Under the pieces are notes generated by a model. That model had not been told where the DNA came from. It made no database searches and saw nothing but the letters and a program-made list of their open reading frames with translations. This document shows positions 4,686 through 57,371 of a DNA stretch of 64,000 nt, in pieces. The first letter of the stretch is position 1. Every line of letters begins with the position of its first letter. Origin of the DNA: a virus (lineage: Duplodnaviria; Caudoviricetes); IMG/VR virus record IMGVR_UViG_3300009705_000015, positions 1,016-65,015 of that record. One strand, 5' to 3'. The position numbers and the translations under genes are program-made.

Positions 4686-4763
4686 TGGCCGACCCGATAC
4701 GCAGGTGGGCTGACGGCTTATCAATGTTTTGGTTCTCAATGTTTTTGGATTTTAGTGATTATT

Positions 4764-6614
4764 ATGGCAACAAGAGATGAATCAATCCGTTCATGGATTC
4801 GCACGAACTACCCAAACCAATCAATCCGTGCCAACATGAGTTATGGTCAATTGGTCAGAATTGTTCAAGACCTGTCTGGAGGTTTGCCAGATGTTTTGGG
4901 AGAAGTTCCTGACGATATGAAATCGACACGGATATTTGGCTCGATACAACCAACAACAACGGACAGTTCTGGAACGTCAAATCTGAAAATTGGAACAACA
5001 TCAACCGGCGCATCTGGCAGCAATGCCGCAGCAACAATCACCGATGGCAAATTGAATCTCACATTGCCGAGAGGAACAACGGGAACCACAGGTGCATCTG
5101 GGGCATCTGGGGCAACAGGCTCAACCGGCGCTGATGGGTCGCAAGGCATTCAAGGCATTCAAGGCTCTCAAGGAATACAAGGAGATGAAGGCTCTCAAGG
5201 AACTGCTGGGGCGGCGGGTTCTCAAGGTATTCAAGGTGCTACGGGAACCACAGGTTCTCAAGGTGCTACGGGTCCAGCAGGACTCCAATGGCGAGGTGCT
5301 TGGTCGTCAGCAACCGCATATATCGTATCTGATGTTTCATCCGATTCAGGCCATTCATACGTTTGCATCGTGGCGAATCAATATCGACAACCTCCCAACG
5401 CAACCTATTGGGAATTGCTCGCTGACGCTGGTGCTGCGGGTCCGACAGGTTCAACGGGTCCTCAAGGAGATGTTGGAACAACCGGCTCTCAAGGTGCGAC
5501 CGGCTCAACAGGCTCACAGGGTCCTCAAGGAGATGCTGGCTCTCAAGGTATTCAAGGTAATCAAGGAGTTCAAGGCACTGCTGGAACCACAGGTTCAACG
5601 GGTTCAACGGGGGCGCAGGGTGCAACGGGTTCATCAGGACTTGGAGTTCCTGCTGGTGGTGCAGCACATAAAGCATTGACCAAAATTGATGCCACCGATA
5701 ACAACACCCAATGGGGCGGGGTTATCGAGTTCGCTCAAGCCGATATACCATCTGCACCAGCAACGGGGAATATCCGAATCGGTGCTGGCAACAACAGCAA
5801 CACATTCGCCATCAACACCGAACATGGCTACATCAACATGGGAATGCAAAACGGTGGAACATGGGCGCACATGAAAACAAGTGCAACATACTTCTATTTT
5901 CACAGGTCAATTCAATTGGATGGTGGCGACGGATTGTATGCGTATGATGGCGATTTTTGGGTCAAGACCGACGACAAGAATAACGCACATCACGAGCGTT
6001 TGACAATTCTCGGTGGAGATAGTCTCGTTGCTGGTGAAACACGAATAGGGATTGACAAAACAACCCCAGCAACCGAACTCGATGTGAATGGAACAATTCG
6101 CCAATCTGCGACTACAAATGCAATCGTCTATGCCGATGCAAACGGCGACCTCACCCCATTGACGATTGGTGCTAATCTCACGCTCACAGGGAACTCTTTG
6201 GCCGCATCTGGTGGTGGTGGTGGAGGAACAAATCTATTGCCACCGACTCTCCAGCCTGTTCCTGATGGTGGATTCATTCCCCAAAACCTCAACAAAGTGA
6301 TTGCTTTGGGTGGCGATGGCAGCCCTATGATAATTGACTTGCCACCAACAACCCCAACACATCAAATTACAATCACGAACACGGCATCGACTCCTGTGTT
6401 GGTTCAATTGACTCCAGCCTCATTCCCTCCGATTCTGTGGACTAAAATGAATGGCCAAACAGGAATCCCGATGCAAGGAGGGATGCTGACAGTTCATGCA
6501 GGTGTCAGTGTGAATGCCGTCTATACTAATGATGATGGGGGCGGTCAACCCAGATACTACATCGAAACATTCAATGTCAGCGAAGAAGGTCGAACCATAG
6601 ATATTGCACCATGA
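4764..6614 (+). CDS. collagen-like (Gly-X-Y) fibre protein
   Basis: Two G-X-Y runs flank a WRGAWSSATAY...SYVC...YWELL module; RIGIDKTTPATELDVNG fibre motif. Confidence 0.8.
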   Translation: MATRDESIRSWIRTNYPNQSIRANMSYGQLVRIVQDLSGGLPDVLGEVPDDMKSTRIFGSIQPTTTDSSGTSNLKIGTTSTGASGSNAAATITDGKLNLTLPRGTTGTTGASGASGATGSTGADGSQGIQGIQGSQGIQGDEGSQGTAGAAGSQGIQGATGTTGSQGATGPAGLQWRGAWSSATAYIVSDVSSDSGHSYVCIVANQYRQPPNATYWELLADAGAAGPTGSTGPQGDVGTTGSQGATGSTGSQGPQGDAGSQGIQGNQGVQGTAGTTGSTGSTGAQGATGSSGLGVPAGGAAHKALTKIDATDNNTQWGGVIEFAQADIPSAPATGNIRIGAGNNSNTFAINTEHGYINMGMQNGGTWAHMKTSATYFYFHRSIQLDGGDGLYAYDGDFWVKTDDKNNAHHERLTILGGDSLVAGETRIGIDKTTPATELDVNGTIRQSATTNAIVYADANGDLTPLTIGANLTLTGNSLAASGGGGGGTNLLPPTLQPVPDGGFIPQNLNKVIALGGDGSPMIIDLPPTTPTHQITITNTASTPVLVQLTPASFPPILWTKMNGQTGIPMQGGMLTVHAGVSVNAVYTNDDGGGQPRYYIETFNVSEEGRTIDIAP

Positions 6615-10399: not shown

Positions 10400-11170
10400 G
10401 CATATGCGATTCGCAACAGCAGGCTGTCAGCAGCAAGTGGTATTGAACTCAATATATCGCAGCACCGATTTACAACGTGAGATAGCAATTAACAAGGCAT
10501 CGACAGAAAAAAAAGCATGACCGAGAGCCTGTCTTTTATTCGGGTCAGGGAACGTGAGAATCCCAGAATCCGGTGCTGGGAATTATCCAGCAAGAGTCGC
10601 AGCACTATTCCAGCCACCAGCCCAAGCGCAGCAAACAATCAATCGACGGTTTTTCAGACGACCAAATTAAAAACCCAATCACACCCTCGCATCGACGAAC
10701 AAAAAACGCTATACTGCGAGCCTGTTGTTTTTCAAGGGTGCCTGACAAAAAGGGCATCGACACTTTTCCAGACGACCAAAGAATCTGGTGCTGCAGATTA
10801 TCCAGCAAGGAGGAATGGATAGAGGAACAGAACGTGCGATTTGGTATTGAGTTCAATATCACACATAGCCTATCGACACCATTCCAGACGACCAAGTGAA
10901 ACACGCCGGACCCAGACAAAATAACCGTGCTACTGCGAGCCTGTTTTTTCTTGCTAAAAAGCGTTTTAATCCCATCGACACTATTCTCAAAAAACAGGTA
11001 TTGACTTCAATATATCCGTGCTGCGAATTACCCTCAATCGCACGTTGTCCATCTCCAGCACAAAACCAGCACCAGATTGATTTGTCGATTATTCTTCGAG
11101 GTTATCGACAACAGATATTGGATTCGATACTCACTAAAGGGGGTTTGTCAAAATTGACAGATTATCTGCT
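10400..11170. repeat. non-coding mosaic of short repeated motifs (candidate pac or ori region)
   Basis: ATCGAC..CAGACGACCAA x3, GAGCCTGT x3, TATTGANNTCAATA x3, ATTATCCAGCAAG x2; no convincing ORF. Confidence 0.7.
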
Positions 11171-15375: not shown

Positions 15376-15861
15376 ATGCCGAGAAAAAAACCACTGATAG
15401 GAAAGCGTGAAATGAAGAAAATGTGCCGAACAAATATCCAGATGTCTTTGGAATCCAAAGGACTCCAATGTGAGGATATGACAGCAGGTTCAATCAAATA
15501 CACCGTCGCCAGATACCCACATGAAGAGAATCAGATTGTCGCCGCTATCTATGGCTCAATCAAGGGCTGTGCATCGTTATGGATGAAAGAAGCAGCATTC
15601 GCTCAAATCAAAGAATCATTGCCAGCCGATACTATTGTCGAAGATGTCGCATTATTCCGCAGAGGATTTCAATGGGCGGTTCACTTTGAATCGCACACGG
15701 ATGAGCGAATCGAATTATGTGTCAATGCCTCGATTAGTGCAGGTAATGTCAGACTCAAAAAAACCGAACTCCGCCGTGCAGATGATGTTCGCAGAGATGA
15801 AAGTCGTGCAGAGCGTGAAACCAAAATGGCAGAACGCAAGCGTGATTGGAAAGACGCTTGA
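15376..15861 (+). CDS. hypothetical protein
   Basis: ORF after ttgataaaggtggg. Confidence 0.65.
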   Translation: MPRKKPLIGKREMKKMCRTNIQMSLESKGLQCEDMTAGSIKYTVARYPHEENQIVAAIYGSIKGCASLWMKEAAFAQIKESLPADTIVEDVALFRRGFQWAVHFESHTDERIELCVNASISAGNVRLKKTELRRADDVRRDESRAERETKMAERKRDWKDA

Positions 15862-15906
15862 TTGATATACCGAACCATTGATATAGTGGAACTACTTAGG
15901 ATGGGT

Positions 15907-17040: not shown

Positions 17041-17079
17041 ACAGATAGATTGAATGTGGGCGGCTTGCCTCCTTGTATT

Positions 17080-18615
17080 ATGAGCAAGGCTGGCAATGCT
17101 GTTCTCACAGGCGAACAAGCGAGGGAGATTGCTCTCTATCCAGACCGTTGGGCTTCTTATTTCAGAACCATCAACGGCAAAGCATTCTTGCTGGGAGAGC
17201 GACCGTATCTCCAAGAAGTCTATCGCCACTTTGGTGCAACCGAGCGCAATGACATAACGAAAGTGATTGTTCTCAAGTGTTCTCGCAAGGTTGAAAAAAC
17301 TGAAACCATCTGCAACATTCTCCTGTATGGGTTGCTCAACATTCCATACTTCAATGCGGTCTATACTGCGCCCAGACAACCGCAAGTGAGCCGATTCGTC
17401 GAGGAACGGTTCAATGGGGCTATGATGAGTTCGGTGAACAATGGATGCCTTCTAAAGCAGCGTATCAAGACAAGCGTGAGCCACCAGACATTCGATGTTG
17501 GTGCAAGGTCTTTGAATCACTTCTATGCCTATTCAAATTGGGGAGATGCACATGGGCTTCTTGGTATCGCCGCAGACCTGTGTTGCATTGACGAATATCA
17601 GGATTGCGACCCAGACGTTCTCCCGATGCTGATGGAGATGCTCACCCAATCGAACTTCAAAATAGTGCTTGTATCTGGCACAGCCCGTGAACAAGGCTCG
17701 GAGTTCTGGAGGCTTTGGGAATCCAGCACGAAGGGCGAATGGGATGGCAGCCAATGGGTGCATCAAAACGGCGGTGCAACGCAAGTTCAGAACATCTATG
17801 GCTATCACATAACCCAATTGATTCATCCATCCGTGTCAGACGCCGATATAGAGCAAAAGCGAGGAACATACTCGCCTCGTCGATTTCAAAACGAAGTGCT
17901 TGGCGAGTTCTTTGCCGGTTCTGCAAAACCTCTCACGTTCGATGTTGCGTTGAATTGTATTGACCCCAATAAGTTCCCAGCGGAGTCTCTGGCGATTCCA
18001 GCAGAATCGGTCATGGGAATTGATTGGGGATTGACAACGACAATCGTGATTTGCAGCAAGGATGGAAAAGAGATATTGAATGCAATACGGATTGAGGCGA
18101 GAGGCGATGGAGAATTGGATGAAGTCGCCAGAATCAAAGAACTAATTCTCCGATACAATTGCGTGAAGGTCGTGTGCGATATCGGATATGGTGCAAGACA
18201 AACAAAGGAACTCCAAGACGAGTTCGCCGACCGTGTTTGCTCGTGCTATTATTCATCTCGACCAATGACTCCATATCAGTTCAAGCGAAGAGATAACAAC
18301 CGCAACATAATCAATATGGCCGTTGTCGATAGGACAACGTATGTGGAAAAAACGCTTGAAATTATCAAGAACAAGGAAATCTCTCTCCCATTCAAAGACC
18401 GAGATTTGGAATGGGTTCTCCATGAATGGTGCGCCATCAACAGTTCGGTCGAAGACGACATGAAAAGCCAGAGACAATTGCGAGGGCAAACCTTGACCAA
18501 GTATGGTCGAGATGGCGACGACCACGCATTCCACGCCCTGCTGTATGCGTTGCTGGCTATCGAGATGATGGATGAGGGTGGCGGATTGCCAACCATGAGA
18601 ACCTTTGGTGCTTAG
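17080..18615 (+). CDS. terL: terminase large subunit
   Basis: Walker A-like SRKVEKT, Walker B CCIDE, SGT coupling motif, nuclease GIDWG and DDHAFHA. Confidence 0.9.
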   Translation: MSKAGNAVLTGEQAREIALYPDRWASYFRTINGKAFLLGERPYLQEVYRHFGATERNDITKVIVLKCSRKVEKTETICNILLYGLLNIPYFNAVYTAPRQPQVSRFVEERFNGAMMSSVNNGCLLKQRIKTSVSHQTFDVGARSLNHFYAYSNWGDAHGLLGIAADLCCIDEYQDCDPDVLPMLMEMLTQSNFKIVLVSGTAREQGSEFWRLWESSTKGEWDGSQWVHQNGGATQVQNIYGYHITQLIHPSVSDADIEQKRGTYSPRRFQNEVLGEFFAGSAKPLTFDVALNCIDPNKFPAESLAIPAESVMGIDWGLTTTIVICSKDGKEILNAIRIEARGDGELDEVARIKELILRYNCVKVVCDIGYGARQTKELQDEFADRVCSCYYSSRPMTPYQFKRRDNNRNIINMAVVDRTTYVEKTLEIIKNKEISLPFKDRDLEWVLHEWCAINSSVEDDMKSQRQLRGQTLTKYGRDGDDHAFHALLYALLAIEMMDEGGGLPTMRTFGA

Positions 18616-20425: not shown

Positions 20426-20924
20426 GAAGGGAATGTCCTTCAACGACCGCCTGATGCTTCTGGTGGGAGTTCCTGTCGTGCTGGCATGGATGGGCTTCGC
20501 CTGTCTTGTCATTTGGTATGGTCTGCATTCATCTGCAGTTCTTGTCAACATCAAGGATTATACAACCCTCATAGCCATCATTGGTGGACCCGCTTTGCTC
20601 ATCCTCACATCTATTCTTGAACTGTGGAAAAACGAACAGAATCAAGAGATTGGTTCGATGCCAGAGTATTGGGAACATCAAAACACCGATATTCAAAATC
20701 AGGCCGCACATCTCCGAATGGTCGAAACCAAAAACCAGCAGCACGAGCAGATTCTCGAAGCAGAGCGACAGGCTGTGGCATTGGGTCTTATTGGCCTCGA
20801 TACGGACCCAGCAGCAGAACGTGGAGAAGAGGCTAATTCTCAAACCATCGAAAATCCAACCGTTGACGAATTGGATGCAATCGACGAATTGGAATCGCTT
20901 GACATCGAGAACTTGTCAGAATAA
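20415..20924 (+). CDS. two-TM membrane protein
   Basis: Two hydrophobic segments then a coiled/acidic tail; start uncertain. Confidence 0.6.
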   Translation: MSNKKGMSFNDRLMLLVGVPVVLAWMGFACLVIWYGLHSSAVLVNIKDYTTLIAIIGGPALLILTSILELWKNEQNQEIGSMPEYWEHQNTDIQNQAAHLRMVETKNQQHEQILEAERQAVALGLIGLDTDPAAERGEEANSQTIENPTVDELDAIDELESLDIENLSE

Positions 20925-20939
20925 AATTGAGATGATATT

Positions 20940-21221
20940 ATGCCGAATCCTGAAATCGACAACAACCATTTATTCCAATGGACCCAAGCGATTCACAGGG
21001 ATTTATCCAACCTGCGTGATAATCACTTGGCTCATATTGCTGACGACTTGACGACCCTGAAACATGATGTGGCTCGGCTCAAAATTGATGTTGTTGAACT
21101 GAAAGAGATTAAAATTGATGTGCTTGCTGTGATTCGCAGATATTCGAGGCGAGCGATTCTATTCATACTTGCAGGTGTCGCCGCTGGTTTGGGTGTTCCT
21201 GAATTGGTGGGGTTGTTTTGA
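20940..21221 (+). CDS. coiled-coil plus C-terminal TM protein (holin-like architecture)
   Basis: NHLAHI coiled coil followed by AILFILAGVAAGLG. Confidence 0.55.
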   Translation: MPNPEIDNNHLFQWTQAIHRDLSNLRDNHLAHIADDLTTLKHDVARLKIDVVELKEIKIDVLAVIRRYSRRAILFILAGVAAGLGVPELVGLF

Positions 21222-21354
21222 CCATCACCTCACCAATTAGACCTGATGATTGCCCTCCTGACGTTCACGATTGCCTCAAGAACAAAACACGCCTTGCCGA
21301 TATGTGCATCAAGTGTCTTGTTCACCAAGCATCTCTCTGGGGGCGACCATACTA

Positions 21355-21501
21355 ATGCCTCTCGTCTTGGCCAAGTGTCCGGCCTGTGGCCATGAAAAGT
21401 GGACTCGCTCGAACCGACCTAAGTGTGGTTCAAATCAATGCGGGAGACCGCATGGAAACATGAAAATAGTTCAGACCGATAGCAAGCCCAATTGGGATTG
21501 A
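21355..21501 (+). CDS. small Zn-finger protein
   Basis: CPACGH...CGSNQC. Confidence 0.5.
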   Translation: MPLVLAKCPACGHEKWTRSNRPKCGSNQCGRPHGNMKIVQTDSKPNWD

Positions 21502-21562
21502 TATGTTCATCGAAATAATTTGCCGATTCGCTATGCGCTATCGACAATGGAGATTCAAGAAG

Positions 21563-21812
21563 TGAACCCAACCGCCCCATCCCCCGATATTAGCGGAGGC
21601 GAGCGACGAGACTGCCTTAGACCATCCTCCAATTCCCGCACAGATTGTTTGCTTTGGGTCTCTTATGTGAGGTGGCCGTCATGTTTGGCGACGGTCAGGT
21701 TCTGGCAGAGACGAACACTACAACACCTCGACACTTCGCATCTCCCATCCATCCACGCCTGTTGCTCGGATTTCAGTTCTTGCGCCTGTGGGTTGGTCGG
21801 GTTGTTCGCCTC
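21563..21812 (-). ncRNA. candidate structured ncRNA, about 250 nt
   Basis: Minus-strand class A promoter (21835-21862), no ATG at +30; 5' AACCCGACC pairs with 3' GGTTGGGTT; GAGGCGAAC/GTTCGTCTC; CCGTC/GACGG hairpin. Confidence 0.6.
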
Positions 21813-22046
21813 TATTCTGATGCTGGAGATGATACTATATCAATTGTTCGGTCTATCAATGTTGAATATCACAATAGCAATGTTCTTATACTCGTGGCCT
21901 CACCCATAGATTGTCGGGGAACAGCGACAATTCTCACAAACGGCACTCTCGAGAATCGGGAGGGTGTGGACTGCGTGGACTGAACAAATCAATTCTCACG
22001 TTCTCAATTGCCAATGCAATTAAACCATGAGGCGCAACCACCAATC

Positions 22047-24473
22047 ATGTCCGAGCGAAAGCGCAGCATCCGTGAGCGTGTTTTTGGCCGTCAAAGAACC
22101 GATGCGCCCGACCCTGCTGATGTTCAACGATTCACCGATTTGGTGAATGAAGCGAACCAGCCTGAATCTGGATTGCTTTGGGATGGCAAGGCTTTGGCAT
22201 CAATGTCAAGAATCGGTCAAGCCACCAAGAAGGGGCGAGCAGCAGAAGGCAGCGGAACTGATACGCTGGTGTCATATTCCCTCTTGAGAGATATTTCATT
22301 GAAGTCAGAAGTCGTCAATGCTATCCTCCGCAGAACTGTCGATGATTGTCTGGGGAATGGATATGAGTTCATCCTCCCCGTTGGCGAAGAGACCGGAGAT
22401 GCTGACCAATTGAAGAAGGCACGAGAATGGTTCAAGAATCCTAATCCTGACGATAATGGCAACGAATGGTTGGAATCCCTCATCTATGATTTGGCTTTGT
22501 TCGGAGATGCCTATCTGGAACTCGATGGGTCCGAAGACAAGAACACGGGTGGCAAAGGTGTCAAGTGGACATATGGAGGCGACCTCGTGAGCGTATGGCC
22601 TATCCCATCTGAACAAATGACTCTCCTTGCTGGCAATCGACGACCAGCCCCACCAAGAATGGCATATGAGCAAAAACTGAATGGCGAGACTCGTCAATTC
22701 TCATCTGACAAAGTGCTTCACATATCGAAGTTCAAACACGACCGAGCGTATGGAACATCTCCGCTTATCTCTTTATTGAACGTAATTTCAGGACACATGA
22801 ATCTGTCAAATTATCTCAACGAACTCTATACAGGAACTCTCCCCAAGACCATCCTGAATGTTGGCGATATATCCAACGGCGAGATGAAAGCAATGCTCGC
22901 TCTCCTTGAACAACAATTGACCGGAGGCAAATCGCCATTCGGTCTGGTCGCCGTCAATGGTGGAACGGGATTCAATATGCACCGAGTTCTCGATTCAACC
23001 CGTGAAGGGGCGCAATTGGATTTGCTCTATTACTATCGTGAAGAGATATGTGCTGTGTTTGGAATCCCACCGATGAAATTGGGCTGGGTTCAGACAGGCA
23101 AAATGTCGAATCCCGAACAGCAATTGGATGCGTGGTATGATGTGATTGAATCATTCCATCGTCGAATTGAAGCCGTCATTAACAATCGACTTCTCCCCTT
23201 GCTGGGAATCACCGATTGGCAATTCGATTTCATCACAGTTCGCCCAAGCCGTGAGAAGGAACTTGCTGAAACCCGCAAGGCCGAATCATTGGCAATCAGC
23301 CATTTGCGACAGGAGAGCATAGTCAGCATCAATGAAGGCCGTATGATGCTCGGTCTTGAACGTCTAAGCGAGCCAGAAGCCGACGACCCATTCTTTTTAT
23401 CTCCAAAGTTATCCATTAACATGGGTGCGGAGGATTCTGCGGAGGAAAATCCAACAACACCTCCATCTCTTGAAGAATTATTCCCTCCCGATTCAACACC
23501 AGATGGTGAAGGAAAATATGCTGGCGAGCATCCAGCAATGACCGATATCCATCCAGCACCAGAACTATCAAATGATATTCGGCTCGATATGGGTTCTCGA
23601 AGAGTCAAAGCATCTGGCGAATATGAATCGCTCATCAGCAATTCCCAGACTTTGCTCGATGCAACATTTGAAGACAATCAACAAACATTCGCAACCGATG
23701 TTCTCGCCAGCCTGAATGATTTGTTCGCAGCAGGAGATGAAGCGGTTGAGATTCCCGATATTGAAATCGACATACCTGTGAAGTCATATCGTCGCAAGGC
23801 AAAAATCAATCTCGACGACATCGAAGTCGCATTTGGCCGTATTGATGCCAATATCGCAACAACGCTGGAAAAGCAAATTGTCGAGGCTGAACTCTTGCTG
23901 ACTACAACGTATGGAGAATCTCTGGGATTGACTCTTGCACCGACCGGAATGGCGAGCGCATTGATGGCCGACGACATTGCTGCTATTGCATTCTGGCGAA
24001 GGAGATGGGTCATACCAGCCCTTCGCCGAACTCTTGGCTCACATAGGGCTAATATCACCACCGTCTTTGAACAGATGGTTGGAGAAGGCCAATCGTGGAA
24101 ATGGGCTTCTGGCCGAATGAAAGAACTCATTGACCCATCTGGTTCAAAATATCCAAAATACTTTTACAATCGAATCGCTCGAACCGAGACTCGTCGAGTC
24201 GTTGAGAACTCCCACATTTCAGGATTGCGCCGAGCCGGATTCAAATATGTTGAGCGACTCGTTGAAATCGACACCCAAACCGACAAGGATTTATGTGCGC
24301 CGTATGAAGGTGCTGTGTATAAAATCGAAGACTCGAACTCCGTGATTCCAGCCCATCCAAATTGCCGTTGCACGTTCGTTGCACGAGATGGAGAACCTGC
24401 TTCGACCGTGCCAGCATCAGATGTGTTGGTTCCAGCAATTGAAACCCTCCCAGAGCGTGAAGGTGGCAATTGA
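22047..24473 (+). CDS. portal protein fused to a MuF/SPP1 gp7-like head morphogenesis domain
   Basis: L.LFGDAY, YGTSP, ICAVFGIPP and SINEGR..LGL portal motifs; RIARTE and PAHPNCRC MuF motifs. Confidence 0.9.
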   Translation: MSERKRSIRERVFGRQRTDAPDPADVQRFTDLVNEANQPESGLLWDGKALASMSRIGQATKKGRAAEGSGTDTLVSYSLLRDISLKSEVVNAILRRTVDDCLGNGYEFILPVGEETGDADQLKKAREWFKNPNPDDNGNEWLESLIYDLALFGDAYLELDGSEDKNTGGKGVKWTYGGDLVSVWPIPSEQMTLLAGNRRPAPPRMAYEQKLNGETRQFSSDKVLHISKFKHDRAYGTSPLISLLNVISGHMNLSNYLNELYTGTLPKTILNVGDISNGEMKAMLALLEQQLTGGKSPFGLVAVNGGTGFNMHRVLDSTREGAQLDLLYYYREEICAVFGIPPMKLGWVQTGKMSNPEQQLDAWYDVIESFHRRIEAVINNRLLPLLGITDWQFDFITVRPSREKELAETRKAESLAISHLRQESIVSINEGRMMLGLERLSEPEADDPFFLSPKLSINMGAEDSAEENPTTPPSLEELFPPDSTPDGEGKYAGEHPAMTDIHPAPELSNDIRLDMGSRRVKASGEYESLISNSQTLLDATFEDNQQTFATDVLASLNDLFAAGDEAVEIPDIEIDIPVKSYRRKAKINLDDIEVAFGRIDANIATTLEKQIVEAELLLTTTYGESLGLTLAPTGMASALMADDIAAIAFWRRRWVIPALRRTLGSHRANITTVFEQMVGEGQSWKWASGRMKELIDPSGSKYPKYFYNRIARTETRRVVENSHISGLRRAGFKYVERLVEIDTQTDKDLCAPYEGAVYKIEDSNSVIPAHPNCRCTFVARDGEPASTVPASDVLVPAIETLPEREGGN

Positions 24474-44141: not shown

Positions 44142-44274
44142 TTATACGACCGATATTGACTCCAATACATCGGAATATCAATACGAACTTCGAGAGTATA
44201 TGAACTCCGCAAAAAAGAACCTAAGTATTGATATACCGACACATTGATATAGTCGAGGCTACACCATTCAAATT

Positions 44275-44696
44275 GTCCGAGCATCCAGCCGAACACCCGA
44301 CTCCCCCAAAGCGGGGCTGAGAACGGTGGGAGTCTGGCGGCTAAGACCGATGCGCCTCCGCATGAAAAGTGCGGGGGATAAAATTGGAAACGAGAGCGAT
44401 TAGAGTCCTCAAGCCTTGAGCCTCCAGAGTCTCCCAAGCAGGTTAAAATGTGCGGGATTACGGCATGGTAGCAAGACAGGATTAGTGTCCACCCTTTGGC
44501 GAGGGTGGTTGGGTATATGATTTGTTTGCGAATATCAGATATTCACAGAACGCACCGACTTCACCTATTTACACGGTGATGTCGATTGTCAGTATGTGTT
44601 TGCTCTCGTTCCCCTGCCTGTCAGAAAGAGTATCGGCGCACTACGCCAAGTGTGTCGAGAGGGTATCTGGCAAGGGTGGGCGCATCGGTTTGGGCT
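44275..44696 (+). ncRNA. candidate large structured ncRNA, about 420 nt
   Basis: Class A promoter 44227-44253 with no ATG at +30; long-range helices 44344-44356/44679-44691 and 44389-44398/44601-44610; several local hairpins. Confidence 0.7.
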
Positions 44697-46968: not shown

Positions 46969-47161
46969 TATTGGATTCGATATGAAAGTCGCTGATTTCA
47001 GCAACCCCCCAGCGGGTTGATGAAATGCAATTTGACGTTCTATTTGCCTGTCATATTGAACTCAATAGCATTGTCGATGTTTCAGGCTGGCTCGAAACGA
47101 CCGATTTCATTGCTGATTAAAGAACCAAAGCATTGATATAGTGGAATGCACACCGTTGTTT

Positions 47162-47665
47162 GTAGCCGGAACATCAGGCCACCGACGACCCTCGACAATA
47201 ACCGACCACTTTTGAGTCGGCTGGCGGGGATTATTTGAAACGCTACACACCTCAACATGGTGGATAGGGTGCGTGAGTCTCCTTCGAGGAGAACGGATGA
47301 AATAGCCACCTCCCAGATGTTGAGGCGTTCTAAAGACGAGCCTGTGCAGCACCTCGTGAACATCACTTGGTCAGACACCAGCGGAGAACTTAAAGTGGAA
47401 TTGGTTGAAAACCAATGAGAACGGGAGGCATGAGTCTTTCTCCCTCGTTTCAAATACATGGTGAGAATCTCTCCCTTAGCGGGGAGGGTCGTTGCCTTCA
47501 ACCGCACAGGGGGGAGGTCAATCAGAAACATCGAGTTCGTCTTTATTCGGGTGCAAACCGGAACTGAAAGGGTGGCGGGGGTGTGGGCGACAAGCGAAGA
47601 GTTCTATCAACCTCACCGATGATTTGGTTTAGCGACCATCTCATCGGTGCTGGTTGGCCACTTCA
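47162..47665 (+). ncRNA. candidate large structured ncRNA, about 500 nt
   Basis: Class A promoter at 47116-47142; nested helices 47183-93/47484-94, 47232-42/47446-56 (perfect 11 bp), 47250-58/47317-25, 47614-22/47641-49. Confidence 0.75.
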
Positions 47666-55625: not shown

Positions 55626-57371
55626 ATGGCAATCGTGAGAATCGACATTCCCTCTCGTGCAGAACTGCCCGATGAATGGGAACAAGTCAGACCGCACTTT
55701 CCGATGCCAGCCCCAAGAAAATATCAAGACGATGCGTTGTCGGTTATGTATTGGGCTTTGGATAATGACGACTTCGACAACATCGTGATTGAAGCACCCA
55801 CAGGAATCGGCAAATCAGCAATCGCTATGACCGTGCAAAACCGTTTTCAATCCGCATACCTCCTGACTCCATCTCTTGGCCTTGCAGACCAATACAAGCG
55901 TGATTATGGCCATGCCTTGAAAGAAGTCAAAGGCCGTTCCAATTTTGCCTGCTGGGTTAATTCTGGAACTGCCGATAAGGGTCCATGTTATGTTGGCAAG
56001 AAGCGGTGTCCACACACCAAAGAAGCCGACCCTTGTCCGTATTATGCACAGAAGTTCGAGGCTGTAAATGCAAGAATCACCCTTTCAAATCCAGCATATT
56101 TATTCCGAGTTATCAAATCCCCAGACCAATCATTTGGTCAACGAGACTTCGCCATAATCGACGAGGCTCACGGCATGGAGGGATTCCTGATGGGCTTGAT
56201 GGAGGTTCGTGTCAATCAAGTGGATTTCAACCGTGTGTTTGGGGCAAAGACTCCATTCCCAATGCACTATCACCCAGCCGATTGGGTTGACGATATAACC
56301 AAATTGCACGAGGGTGCGACGAAGACTTTGACAAGTGCAGAAGAGGATGAGAACGTGAATCTCGTGGATGAAATGCGAGGAATTATTTCACGAACTGCAA
56401 CATTGCTGGAATTGCTTGCTGTGCCAAATGATGTAGTGGTCGAACTCGACCATGACAGAAGAGGCAACCGAGTTCTCATTGTTAAACCGATTCGAGTCAG
56501 CAAATTAGCACCGGATATATTGGAGTCAATAAGCCGCCAGCGGATATTTATGTCTGCAACAATTCTCAATGTTGACGAGTTCTTGGCTGGGCTTGGACTC
56601 TCCGACCAAAAGACTCTCTTCATCCGAATCACAGAATCGCCATTCCCAAAGGAGAACTTCAATGTTCACTATGCACCAACAGGCTCAATGTCATATGCTC
56701 GCCGTGAGAAGTCGATTCCTCGTCAGGTCAAGGCAATCGCAGCAATCATGGAGAAGTGGCCAGATAAGCGAGGCGTTGTCCTCCCTCACACCCATGCAAT
56801 CCGCAAAGGATTGGTCGAGGGGCTACAAGCAGCCGGTCTTGGAGACCGAATCATAACTCACGATTCAAACGGCCATGCACGTTCACTTGCGCTTGATAAG
56901 TTCTTCACTTCAGAGCGTGATGATTTAGTTCTCATTTCAACCTATGTCGGCGAAGGATTCGACTTCAAGGGCAGGCTGGCGGAATGGTTGGTCATATCCA
57001 AAATACCATATCTATTCACACCAGACCCACAGGTCGCTCAAAGGATGGAACAAGACGAGCATGAATGGCGAAGAGAACACGAAGGCACACCTAAATGCCC
57101 CTATGAACCTCCGAACAAATACAGTGGAAATCTATGCTCATCATTCACTTGTCCTAAACCATGTCAATCGTGGTTCAATGTGGCAACCACTTTGAAATTG
57201 GTTCAAGGTGCTGGGAGAATCAACAGAACTCCAGATGATGTTGGCCACTTGTTCATCCTCGACCAATCGTGGGAACGCTATTATCGACTAAACGGACATC
57301 TCTTGCCTTCGTGGTTCAGGAATGCAATCCAACCAGCACCAGCGTGGTTGAAACGCCATCTGGTGTTATGA
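55626..57371 (+). CDS. Rad3/XPD/DinG-family SF2 helicase
   Basis: EAPTGIGKS, KGRSNF.C, Cys cluster ending CPYY, IIDEAH, MSAT, EGFDF, QGAGRINR. Confidence 0.93.
   Translation: MAIVRIDIPSRAELPDEWEQVRPHFPMPAPRKYQDDALSVMYWALDNDDFDNIVIEAPTGIGKSAIAMTVQNRFQSAYLLTPSLGLADQYKRDYGHALKEVKGRSNFACWVNSGTADKGPCYVGKKRCPHTKEADPCPYYAQKFEAVNARITLSNPAYLFRVIKSPDQSFGQRDFAIIDEAHGMEGFLMGLMEVRVNQVDFNRVFGAKTPFPMHYHPADWVDDITKLHEGATKTLTSAEEDENVNLVDEMRGIISRTATLLELLAVPNDVVVELDHDRRGNRVLIVKPIRVSKLAPDILESISRQRIFMSATILNVDEFLAGLGLSDQKTLFIRITESPFPKENFNVHYAPTGSMSYARREKSIPRQVKAIAAIMEKWPDKRGVVLPHTHAIRKGLVEGLQAAGLGDRIITHDSNGHARSLALDKFFTSERDDLVLISTYVGEGFDFKGRLAEWLVISKIPYLFTPDPQVAQRMEQDEHEWRREHEGTPKCPYEPPNKYSGNLCSSFTCPKPCQSWFNVATTLKLVQGAGRINRTPDDVGHLFILDQSWERYYRLNGHLLPSWFRNAIQPAPAWLKRHLVL

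Follow-up and report, generated by a model that had tools for sequence, protein, structure and literature searches.

What is made from a phage promoter that points away from the structural genes and is followed by no gene? This question is raised by a short interval in a 64,000-nucleotide stretch of DNA (hereafter, the window) from an uncultured marine phage of the Caudoviricetes, record IMGVR_UViG_3300009705_000015, in which the window comprises bases 1016–65015 of a linear, 65,015-base sequence with an estimated completeness of ~80%. Almost all long open reading frames (ORFs) of the window lie on the plus strand. Between a small Cys-rich gene and the portal gene, a copy of the phage's promoter-type motif is found on the minus strand, and the unit that follows it, here termed u1 (21558–21827, minus strand), is ORF-less. 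The expected transcript is ~270 nucleotides (nt) long, its 5′ end being placed by promoter geometry and its 3′ end by a conserved module. The reading of u1 as a non-coding RNA is, in our opinion, the best available and the most likely one, although it is unproven; we put the probability that u1 is a promoter-driven cassette whose non-coding transcript would be functional at roughly 0.4. The production of this RNA, its start and end, and its role are what we infer from the features described below.

No credible open reading frame after the inverted motif

The motif, TTGATA-N10-TTGATATAG at 21835–21861 (minus strand), has 0 mismatches in both half-sites. It belongs to a family whose phage-wide consensus is TTGATA-N9-11-TTGATAWRG. 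A strict pattern (TTGATA with at most 1 mismatch, 9–11 bases, then [TC]T[GTA]ATA[TA][AG]G) recovers 12 copies from the window, all of them intergenic. An ORF of at least 99 amino acids begins 3–22 nt downstream of 10 of the 12, and in 8 of the 12 an ATG is located at +20 to +22. The two copies without an ORF are the minus-strand copy at 21859, which precedes u1, and the plus-strand copy at 44228, which precedes a second ORF-less unit, u2. The motif and the +20 start rule also hold, under a slightly looser pattern, in the complete genomes of three relatives (G001–G003). From this position and regularity we infer that the motif is a promoter, and the minus-strand promoter proposed in an earlier, sequence-only reading of the locus is borne out as a member of the phage's own promoter class.

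The 27-mer of the u1 promoter recurs, with 3 mismatches, at 15860–15886 (plus strand), against 0.00 expected matches (100 shuffles), and a repeat search places the u1 promoter within repeat families that extend across the window (D3–D11 and the inverted pairs I2–I8). The distance between TTGATA and TATAGT or TAAGGG, as read from the sequences, is 14 nt, which is not the sigma-70 optimum. A generic promoter scan of the region found 5 promoters compared with 2.9 ± 1.9 in shuffled sequences, i.e., no enrichment.

In the window and in G001–G003, the start codon is found nearly always 20–22 nt after the motif, frequently within ATATGA(G/C)C and with no clear Shine-Dalgarno sequence. This spacing and the lack of a Shine-Dalgarno sequence point to very short leaders and perhaps to a polymerase or factor specific to the phage. 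Several listed ORF starts, for example TTG 15862 and TTG 22008, are probably too far upstream. The motif and the fixed start-codon distance of ~20 nt together provide a simple annotation rule for genes and transcription units of this uncultured phage group. No ORF of at least 40 amino acids is found within 90 nt of the promoter copy at 4719–4739 (minus strand), and the same conserved leader, CGTCAGCCCnCC.GnGTATCGG.., follows both this copy and a copy at 56389 (plus strand) in G003.

No credible ORF follows the u1 promoter: none of at least 30 amino acids starts within 190 nt of it, and the first of at least 25 amino acids (29 amino acids long) begins 82 nt away. The plus strand is coding to position 21501, and nothing coding is detectable from 21502 to the portal leader. 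Identical fragments of the window sequence are present in contigs from several marine and seawater metagenome runs, and 18 contig pieces from four runs (four studies) show 0 differences from the window and no variants. Independent contigs match the u1 region at 21417–21735 and 21813–21996, also with 0 differences, 21736–21812 lying outside their cover. Since these contigs from other studies agree fully with the window in the covered parts, the missing ORF is not explained by an assembly error. The GC content of u1 (55.0% vs. 47.2% for the window) is raised, as is that of u2 and of a third ORF-less unit, u3.

A 3′ module with similarity on one strand and a covarying hairpin

Relatives of the phage were collected with an alignment of portal proteins (A1). 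Of 100 IMG/VR relatives, 80 were taken as loci, and of 105 metagenome relatives, another 80, many of which duplicate one another; L-numbers denote these loci or contigs, and 183 loci were used for the tblastx and blastn comparison of u1. The body of u1 has no match in the 183 loci by either program (the best tblastx E-value is 0.86, and 0.19 for u2). The only part of u1 with detectable relatives is a 3′ module at 21558–21632 (minus strand), which, as tested, consists of a purine-rich tract, a 6-bp hairpin and GGAUGGGGGUUGGUUUCG. In u1, the hairpin CCUCCG/CGGGGG occupies 21581–21599 and is followed by AUGGGGCGGUUGGGUUC (21564–21580). The 3′ end chosen in the sequence-only reading (...GGTTGGGTTC, 21564) coincides with the end of this hairpin and G/U-rich module.

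The relatives of the module are found in a larger RNA candidate, termed here the L013 type, which is ORF-less, 430–700 nt long and located directly after a promoter of the same family, upstream of the portal gene, in three lineages (L010–L012/L085, L013 and L041). It occupies positions 371–800 in L013, 5330–6000 in L010 and 1815–2510 in L041. A further copy in G002 (70843–71690; L194) lies after a homologue of a 608-amino-acid gene of the window and has only the 5′ domain in common with the others. The L013 sequence (371–800) folds with −177.8 kcal/mol (z = −5.25; 0 of 100 shuffles as good) and forms a long 5′-3′ closing helix, which, as read by eye, differs compensatorily between L010 and L013. 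No Rfam match was found for the L013-type RNA, and it is absent from Rfam 15.

Two lines of evidence connect u1 with this RNA. The first is sequence similarity. Compared with 200 dinucleotide shuffles, the Smith-Waterman score of u1 is 22 against L013 and 22 against L041 (0 of 200 shuffles in each case) and 17 against L010 (13 of 200). The alignment with L013 and L041 is collinear over 73 nt (window positions 21632–21558). Reverse-complement controls score 13–14, close to the shuffle mean (about 13), and the similarity is confined to a single strand. The second is covariation of the hairpin. The 6-bp stem varies between the lineages (CCGUCG/CGACGG in L013, CCAAUC/GGUUGG in L010 and L041), while 25 of 26 cells are paired and both sides are changed in 2 of the 6 pairs. 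The covariation score is 0.533 vs. 0.224 in shuffled alignments (reached by 6 of 500), and slid controls pair at no more than 61.5%. As far as sequence comparison goes, the module is the sole part of u1 in which selection, or recent transfer, is visible.

The relatives' 3′ domain was also made into a covariance model (R1; three sequences, u1 left out), which was run with filters off against both strands of the whole window (128 kb). Its best match, at full length, is 21560–21700 on the minus strand (14.3 bits, E 0.069), the next matches having E-values of 0.7 and worse. Among the relatives, R1 and a further model, R3, returned only training sequences and their duplicates. A nhmmer search with the L013 RNA gave no match reaching the window, exact-pattern scans of IMG/VR gave one more contig of the L010 type and 6 chance matches in coding sequence, and a scan of IMG/VR with u1 and u2 patterns gave 0 matches.

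Thus, u1 resembles the L013-type RNA in the promoter type immediately upstream, in being ORF-less within the same genomic slot, in its 3′ module with the covarying hairpin, and in a GGCnAACAACCCGACC-like element at equal distance from the promoter. It differs in length (270 nt vs. 430–700 nt) and in lying on the opposite strand relative to the portal gene. The 5′ domain of the L013-type RNA (hairpin ACCUCCCGA/UCGGGGGGU, then GAAUUGGAA) is not present in u1, which is missed by the model of that domain (R2), and is carried by u2 instead. The long closing helix and the strong overall structure are likewise not found in u1, whose folding shows no excess over chance (z = −1.53 for the unit and −0.63 for its 3′ half, compared with −5.25).

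A hypervariable cargo slot beside the portal gene

The site of u1 is a hypervariable cargo slot between the Cys-rich gene (21355–21501, plus strand), which is convergent with u1, and the portal gene (22008–24473, plus strand), which is fused to a MuF-like domain (PF04860, 3.1e-35; phrog_12, 1.3e-41). Relatives keep the order of a conserved small gene of 93 amino acids (20940–21221, plus strand), the Cys-rich gene where it is found, a gap and the portal gene. The gap, measured to the portal gene from the Cys-rich gene or, where the latter was not found, from the 93-amino-acid gene, ranges from −4 to 1784 nt.

The content of the slot differs between lineages. Minus-strand ORFs of 80, 84 and 86 amino acids stand directly after motif copies in L004, L005 and L093, respectively; they are 76% identical and differ by in-frame indels. 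Minus-strand ORFs of 155 amino acids in L096, 157 amino acids in L006 and L033, and 142 amino acids in L003 and L008 occupy the slot in other relatives, while L146 and L171 have plus-strand ORFs. Finally, L010–L013, L041, L009 and L099 carry plus-strand blocks of 430–800 nt without an ORF. None of the slot cargo proteins belongs to a Pfam family. An inverted promoter motif, oriented as in the window, precedes the minus-strand cargo in L004, L005 and L033 (strict or one-mismatch pattern) and in L096 (by eye), and a diverged promoter-like sequence on the plus strand (..GGAATGTTCTTATAGTGG) faces the portal gene in these relatives.

The window has an analogous arrangement at 21866–21925 (plus strand), where a putative divergent promoter variant (..AATGTTCTTATACT) is followed by the conserved start of the presumed portal leader (CATAGATTGTCGGGGAAC). 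This block is conserved in L004, L005 and L033, and sequence of a like type is found in L004, L005, L093 and L096. A DNA block just 5′ of the portal start, CCAATGCAATTAAACC, is kept in L004, L005 and L093 and occurs in a diverged form, CCAAAGCAATTAAACC, in L096. The true start of the portal protein is probably ATG 22047, from which the window sequence MSERKRS.. aligns with MAERKRT.. of L004; the public portal protein (819 amino acids) begins at ATG 22014, and the ORF list gives TTG 22008.

Cargo is found in more than one slot. Members of the 80–86-amino-acid family (MYDRVLVHIMDNRTPNHLA..HTGxCxGC..DEVKATDFGLC.FVSNFWLDR) are encoded at 5551–5793 in L004, 5405–5659 in L005 and 1899–2159 in L093, all on the minus strand, and at ~68.4 kb on the plus strand of G002. 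In G002, the cargo gene and its promoter lie between homologues of a 1655-amino-acid and a 608-amino-acid gene, which is the position of u2 in the window. Judging from these arrangements, promoter-plus-cargo cassettes move between slots and orientations.

The two other ORF-less cassettes of the window fit into this picture in different ways. The promoter of u2 (44228–44512, plus strand) is of the same TATAGT subclass as that of u1, and u2 is partly similar to u1. It folds better than most shuffles (z = −2.49; 3 of 200 as good) and ends in a 7-bp terminator-like hairpin (44489–44510) followed by a U-rich tail. Its segment 44344–44400 resembles the 5′ hairpin domain of L010, L013 and L041 (score 21 for L010, with 0 of 200 shuffles reaching it; 18 for L013, with 1 of 200; and 20 for L041, with 0 of 200). 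The likeness between u1 and u2 is marginal (score 16; 26 of 500 shuffles in one comparison and 15 of 200 in another do as well), with the aligned blocks at like distances from the promoter (169–267 vs. 172–261). In relatives, the u2 slot holds protein cargo, and no u2 homologue was found in it.

The third cassette, u3, is a block of ~520 nt without an ORF (47144–47665, plus strand) after the promoter copy at 47116–47143, between the 608-amino-acid gene and a 2325-amino-acid gene. Its fold is strong (z = −3.51), and 0 of 100 shuffles do as well. L099 has a highly similar ORF-less block before its portal gene, and L009 has a more distantly similar one; the consensus fold of the three contains 121 pairs, 19 of which are changed on both sides. 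No Rfam match was found for u3, and the similarity of u1 or u2 to RNAs of the u3 type is not significant. The L013-type and the u3/L099-type RNAs, both without an Rfam 15 match, are larger and structured, and as candidates for new RNA families they outrank u1, which led to them.

It is conceivable, although in our view doubtful, that u1, u2, the L013-type and the u3/L099-type RNAs are modular phage "cargo RNAs" which, like protein morons, would each take a promoter copy along and move among hyperplastic slots in both orientations. If so, promoter cassettes would be shuffling morons that consist of RNA only, and Rfam would lack two or three families of structured RNA. Such cargo would act as RNA itself, for example in the control of late transcription or as a decoy for a host system.

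The left border of the slot deserves a few remarks. The Cys-rich gene product (48 amino acids; CPACG...CGSNQCG) has no Pfam family and is probably a small zinc-ribbon-like protein. Its own frame is the best tblastx frame in L003–L008, L010–L015, L017, L033, L041 and L056 (6 close and ~10 more distant relatives). The ORF list gives a longer form with a TTG start at 21271. The codon score of the gene is negative although it is conserved in the loci of at least 16 relatives.

Alternative explanations and comparison with known systems

If u1 is a functional RNA, the inverted standard phage promoter would drive a non-coding transcript of the minus strand from roughly 21827 to 21560. This transcript would end in the conserved module, i.e., the 6-bp hairpin followed by AUGGGGCGGUUGGGUUC, which may define or stabilise the RNA 3′ end, and u1 would be a reduced relative of the L013-type family. 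As a short and stable transcript, antisense or convergent, it may keep read-through from upstream apart from the portal promoter. A local effect appears most likely because u1 would be transcribed against the flow of the operon that runs from the terminase to the Cys-rich gene (the large subunit of the terminase is encoded at 17050–18615; phrog_675, 7.3e-58). A local antisense or insulating role would be the simplest guess, since u1 is convergent with this upstream operon and abuts the putative divergent portal promoter; a trans-acting role may also be considered. Should u1 prove to be a real RNA, non-coding RNA cargo would take its place beside protein cargo in the accessory ("moron") slots of a widespread group of marine phages of ~80 kb, each cargo having a promoter copy to itself.

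Several results weigh against this reading. All sequence elements quoted in the sequence-only reading were found on the minus strand at the places it gave, and the pairings that it listed, including both possible partners of the 5′ element, are present in the sequence. A stable or alternative fold of the whole 250 nt is not supported, the folding energy being at chance level. The minus strand of 21563–21822 has a minimum free energy of −91.3 kcal/mol, equalled or bettered by 13 of 200 shuffles, and for the 3′ half (21555–21712) 60 of 200 shuffles fold as well, the z-scores being those given above; the plus strand has z = +0.54. The promoter and the missing gene of that reading stood, and the fold that it described did not exceed chance. 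The first 198 nt of u1 have no significant similarity on either strand. In 20500–22500, terminator prediction gave no canonical intrinsic terminator for the minus strand; the hairpin with its G/U tract at the u1 3′ end, like the hairpin with the U-rich tail of u2, could serve as a terminator, and neither adjoins the promoter. As to transcription, 0 of the 20 sequencing runs listed for the phage are recorded as RNA.

The connection with the L013-type RNA has its own weaknesses. The E-value of 0.069 obtained with R1 is weak alone, and it is unconvincing because the sister model R2, which missed u1 and u2 and the similarity of u2 to the 5′ domain, matched coding sequence only (E 0.028 and 0.08). 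The choice of the model was not blind, the likeness between u1 and its relatives having been seen by eye before R1 was built. Short motif matches between u1 and L013 outside the 3′ module are not collinear, and no further copy of the module was found in 678 kb of relatives or in the IMG/VR pattern search. The nearest non-self portal protein is 76% identical, which means that the collections searched hold no close relative; because of this, the conservation of u1 as a whole cannot be judged.

The main alternative, which we regard as somewhat less likely than a functional RNA, is that u1 is a relic of shuffling, in which recombination at promoter motifs joined a fragment of an L013-type RNA, its 3′ module, to an unrelated spacer behind the inverted promoter; the RNA, if made, would be idle. 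This would account for relatives being detectable for only ~75 of ~270 nt, with nothing matching the first 198 nt, and for folding at chance level. The start of an L013-type RNA (CATAGATTGT..GGGnAAC) is still present on the plus strand before the portal gene; since this 5′ start motif is on the plus strand and the 3′ module is on the minus strand, the two ends of such an RNA are now on opposite strands. Cassettes are, moreover, demonstrably mobile: the 80-amino-acid cargo is on the minus strand beside the portal gene in L004, L005 and L093 and on the plus strand in the u2 slot of G002, and the large RNAs likewise change slots. Finally, an ATA occupies the position where other promoter copies have ATG. 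A relic would not be expected to retain a promoter copy without a mismatch in either half-site, or a GC content raised as in structured RNAs. Nor would it be expected to keep a hairpin through compensatory changes where the portal proteins are only ~60% identical, which suggests constraint or recent transfer.

The ATA brings in a second, distinctly less probable alternative, a small Cys-rich peptide of either 29 amino acids from ATG 21752 (MDGRCEVSRCCSVRLCQ...) or 50 amino acids from ATA 21815. No stop codon interrupts the frame between the promoter and 21663 (21663–21815, minus strand; 50 codons, including the 29-amino-acid ORF at 21663–21752), and its ATA lies at +19, compared with the ATG at +20 to +22 in 8 of 12 promoter copies. 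Because an ATA at the canonical start distance opens a 50-codon frame, the peptide keeps some weight, and small Cys-containing cargo proteins do occupy the slot in relatives. However, no canonical start is found at the canonical place, the ATG ORF lies too far from the motif to resemble the other copies, and ~9% of random 50-codon frames would stay open (estimated as (61/64)^50). The codon score of the frame is −7.0, lower than that of 249 of 249 windows from true genes and typical of open non-coding frames. These scores are log-odds of codon usage trained on 19 long genes of the window (training mean 0.196 per codon). The test is weak for small genes, since the conserved 48-amino-acid Cys-rich gene does no better (−0.148 per codon). 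The peptide has no BLASTP similarity to the L004 cargo protein and no tblastx match. A decayed copy of the relatives' cargo protein was considered separately and rejected, there being no BLASTP alignment and no tblastx match.

The same codon scores bear on the possibility that one of the plus-strand ORFs across the region, 21520–21909 or 21645–21983, is a real gene and that the minus-strand motif lies within it by chance or as an operator. For ORF 21645–21983, the score is neutral (+0.001 per codon), and a 100-amino-acid form of it has been called in a public collection (P0123, 100% identical). An exhaustive search of 1.84 billion representatives with this ORF gave 3 matches: itself (100 amino acids, 100%) and two unrelated repeat proteins, matched through low-complexity repeats. 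ORF 21520–21909 scores −0.192 per codon and, like a 53-amino-acid minus-strand ORF at 21419–21580, has no match in the same search. None of the three ORFs has a Pfam or PHROG family. Neither plus-strand ORF has a tblastx match in the 183 loci (none at E<0.1) although both flanking genes are conserved in relatives, and all other motif copies are intergenic. The sequence-only reading had called these ORFs spurious; its view is upheld, and a gene here is very improbable.

A packaging RNA acting on the portal, which the sequence-only reading had mentioned because of the position, is scarcely credible: although the large structured RNAs of relatives also lie right upstream of the portal gene, that position is explained by the hypervariable slot, no Rfam family is matched at the gathering score or at E≤5, a large terminase is encoded by the phage, RNAs of the same types occur far from the portal gene (44 kb for u2, 47 kb for u3 and 70.8 kb for the G002 copy), and no such RNA is needed in relatives such as L007, L017, L111 and L113, where the portal gene directly follows the upstream gene (gaps of −4 to 33 nt). 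Rfam contains a pRNA family. With the pRNA of phi29, u1 shares the property of being a phage-encoded candidate RNA, likened to it solely for nearness to the portal gene, whereas it matches no covariance model, is about twice as long, and has relatives in slots unrelated to the portal. More generally, Rfam 15 gave 0 matches at the gathering score in the window and in the loci of 12 relatives, a single chance microRNA match (16 bits, E 4.6) in 21100–22200 at E≤5, and nothing meaningful for the relatives' RNAs at E-value thresholds. Searches for tRNA and tmRNA found none.

Models for a non-coding u1 transcript may be found among short, promoter-proximal phage transcripts without an ORF, such as the 6S RNA of lambda (from PR′), the oop RNA and the sar RNA of P22. 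As in these, a phage promoter would give rise to a short non-coding transcript that neighbours structural or regulatory genes or converges with them, which offers a working model for local antisense action or insulation. There is no relation in sequence or structure between u1 and these RNAs, and an antiterminator, an overlap with a target and a terminator are not shown for u1.

The cassette architecture as a whole works like that of the promoter-early stem-loop (PeSL) cassettes outlined for T4-type phages, in which conserved promoter-containing motifs at hyperplastic regions mediate the exchange of non-essential genes as modules (Arbiol et al. 2010, PMC2839356; Comeau et al. 2014, PMC4122927). 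As in that outline, many intergenic sites of the genome carry copies of one short and strongly conserved promoter motif, which are concentrated at hyperplastic sites with non-essential, lineage-specific genes; relatives carry different cargo in the same slot and the same cargo in different slots, a pattern that recombination at the motif copies would produce. Measured against the same outline, the present cassettes are not members of the PeSL family. The motif is different and, with its 14-nt hexamer spacing, not sigma-70-like, and a terminator stem-loop joined to the promoter is not seen here. The cargo includes ORF-less RNA and may stand in inverted orientation. The phage itself is not of the T4 type, having a PF04860 portal with a MuF-like fusion and no T4-like relatives among 33 phage records. 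Literature searches on PeSLs and large structured phage RNAs, which did not extend to the phage group itself, brought up no description of these RNAs.

The phage records contain no DNA match to the window, and their portal matches (33 records) are all of less than 30% identity. No close relative came from scans of viral and metagenome contigs with a single portal protein. In a large protein collection, 122 portal relatives were found at E≤1e-10, many of them on contigs of ~80 kb. Two repeat-rich regions of the window lie elsewhere. Within ORF 4755–6614, long 9-nt periodic arrays of GGN-rich repeats extend over 5097–5647 (plus strand) and encode a collagen-like Gly-X-Y sequence. At 10508–10949, two three-copy families of direct repeats (D15, 35 nt; D18, 30 nt), with copies 114–219 nt apart, are located among short overlapping ORFs.

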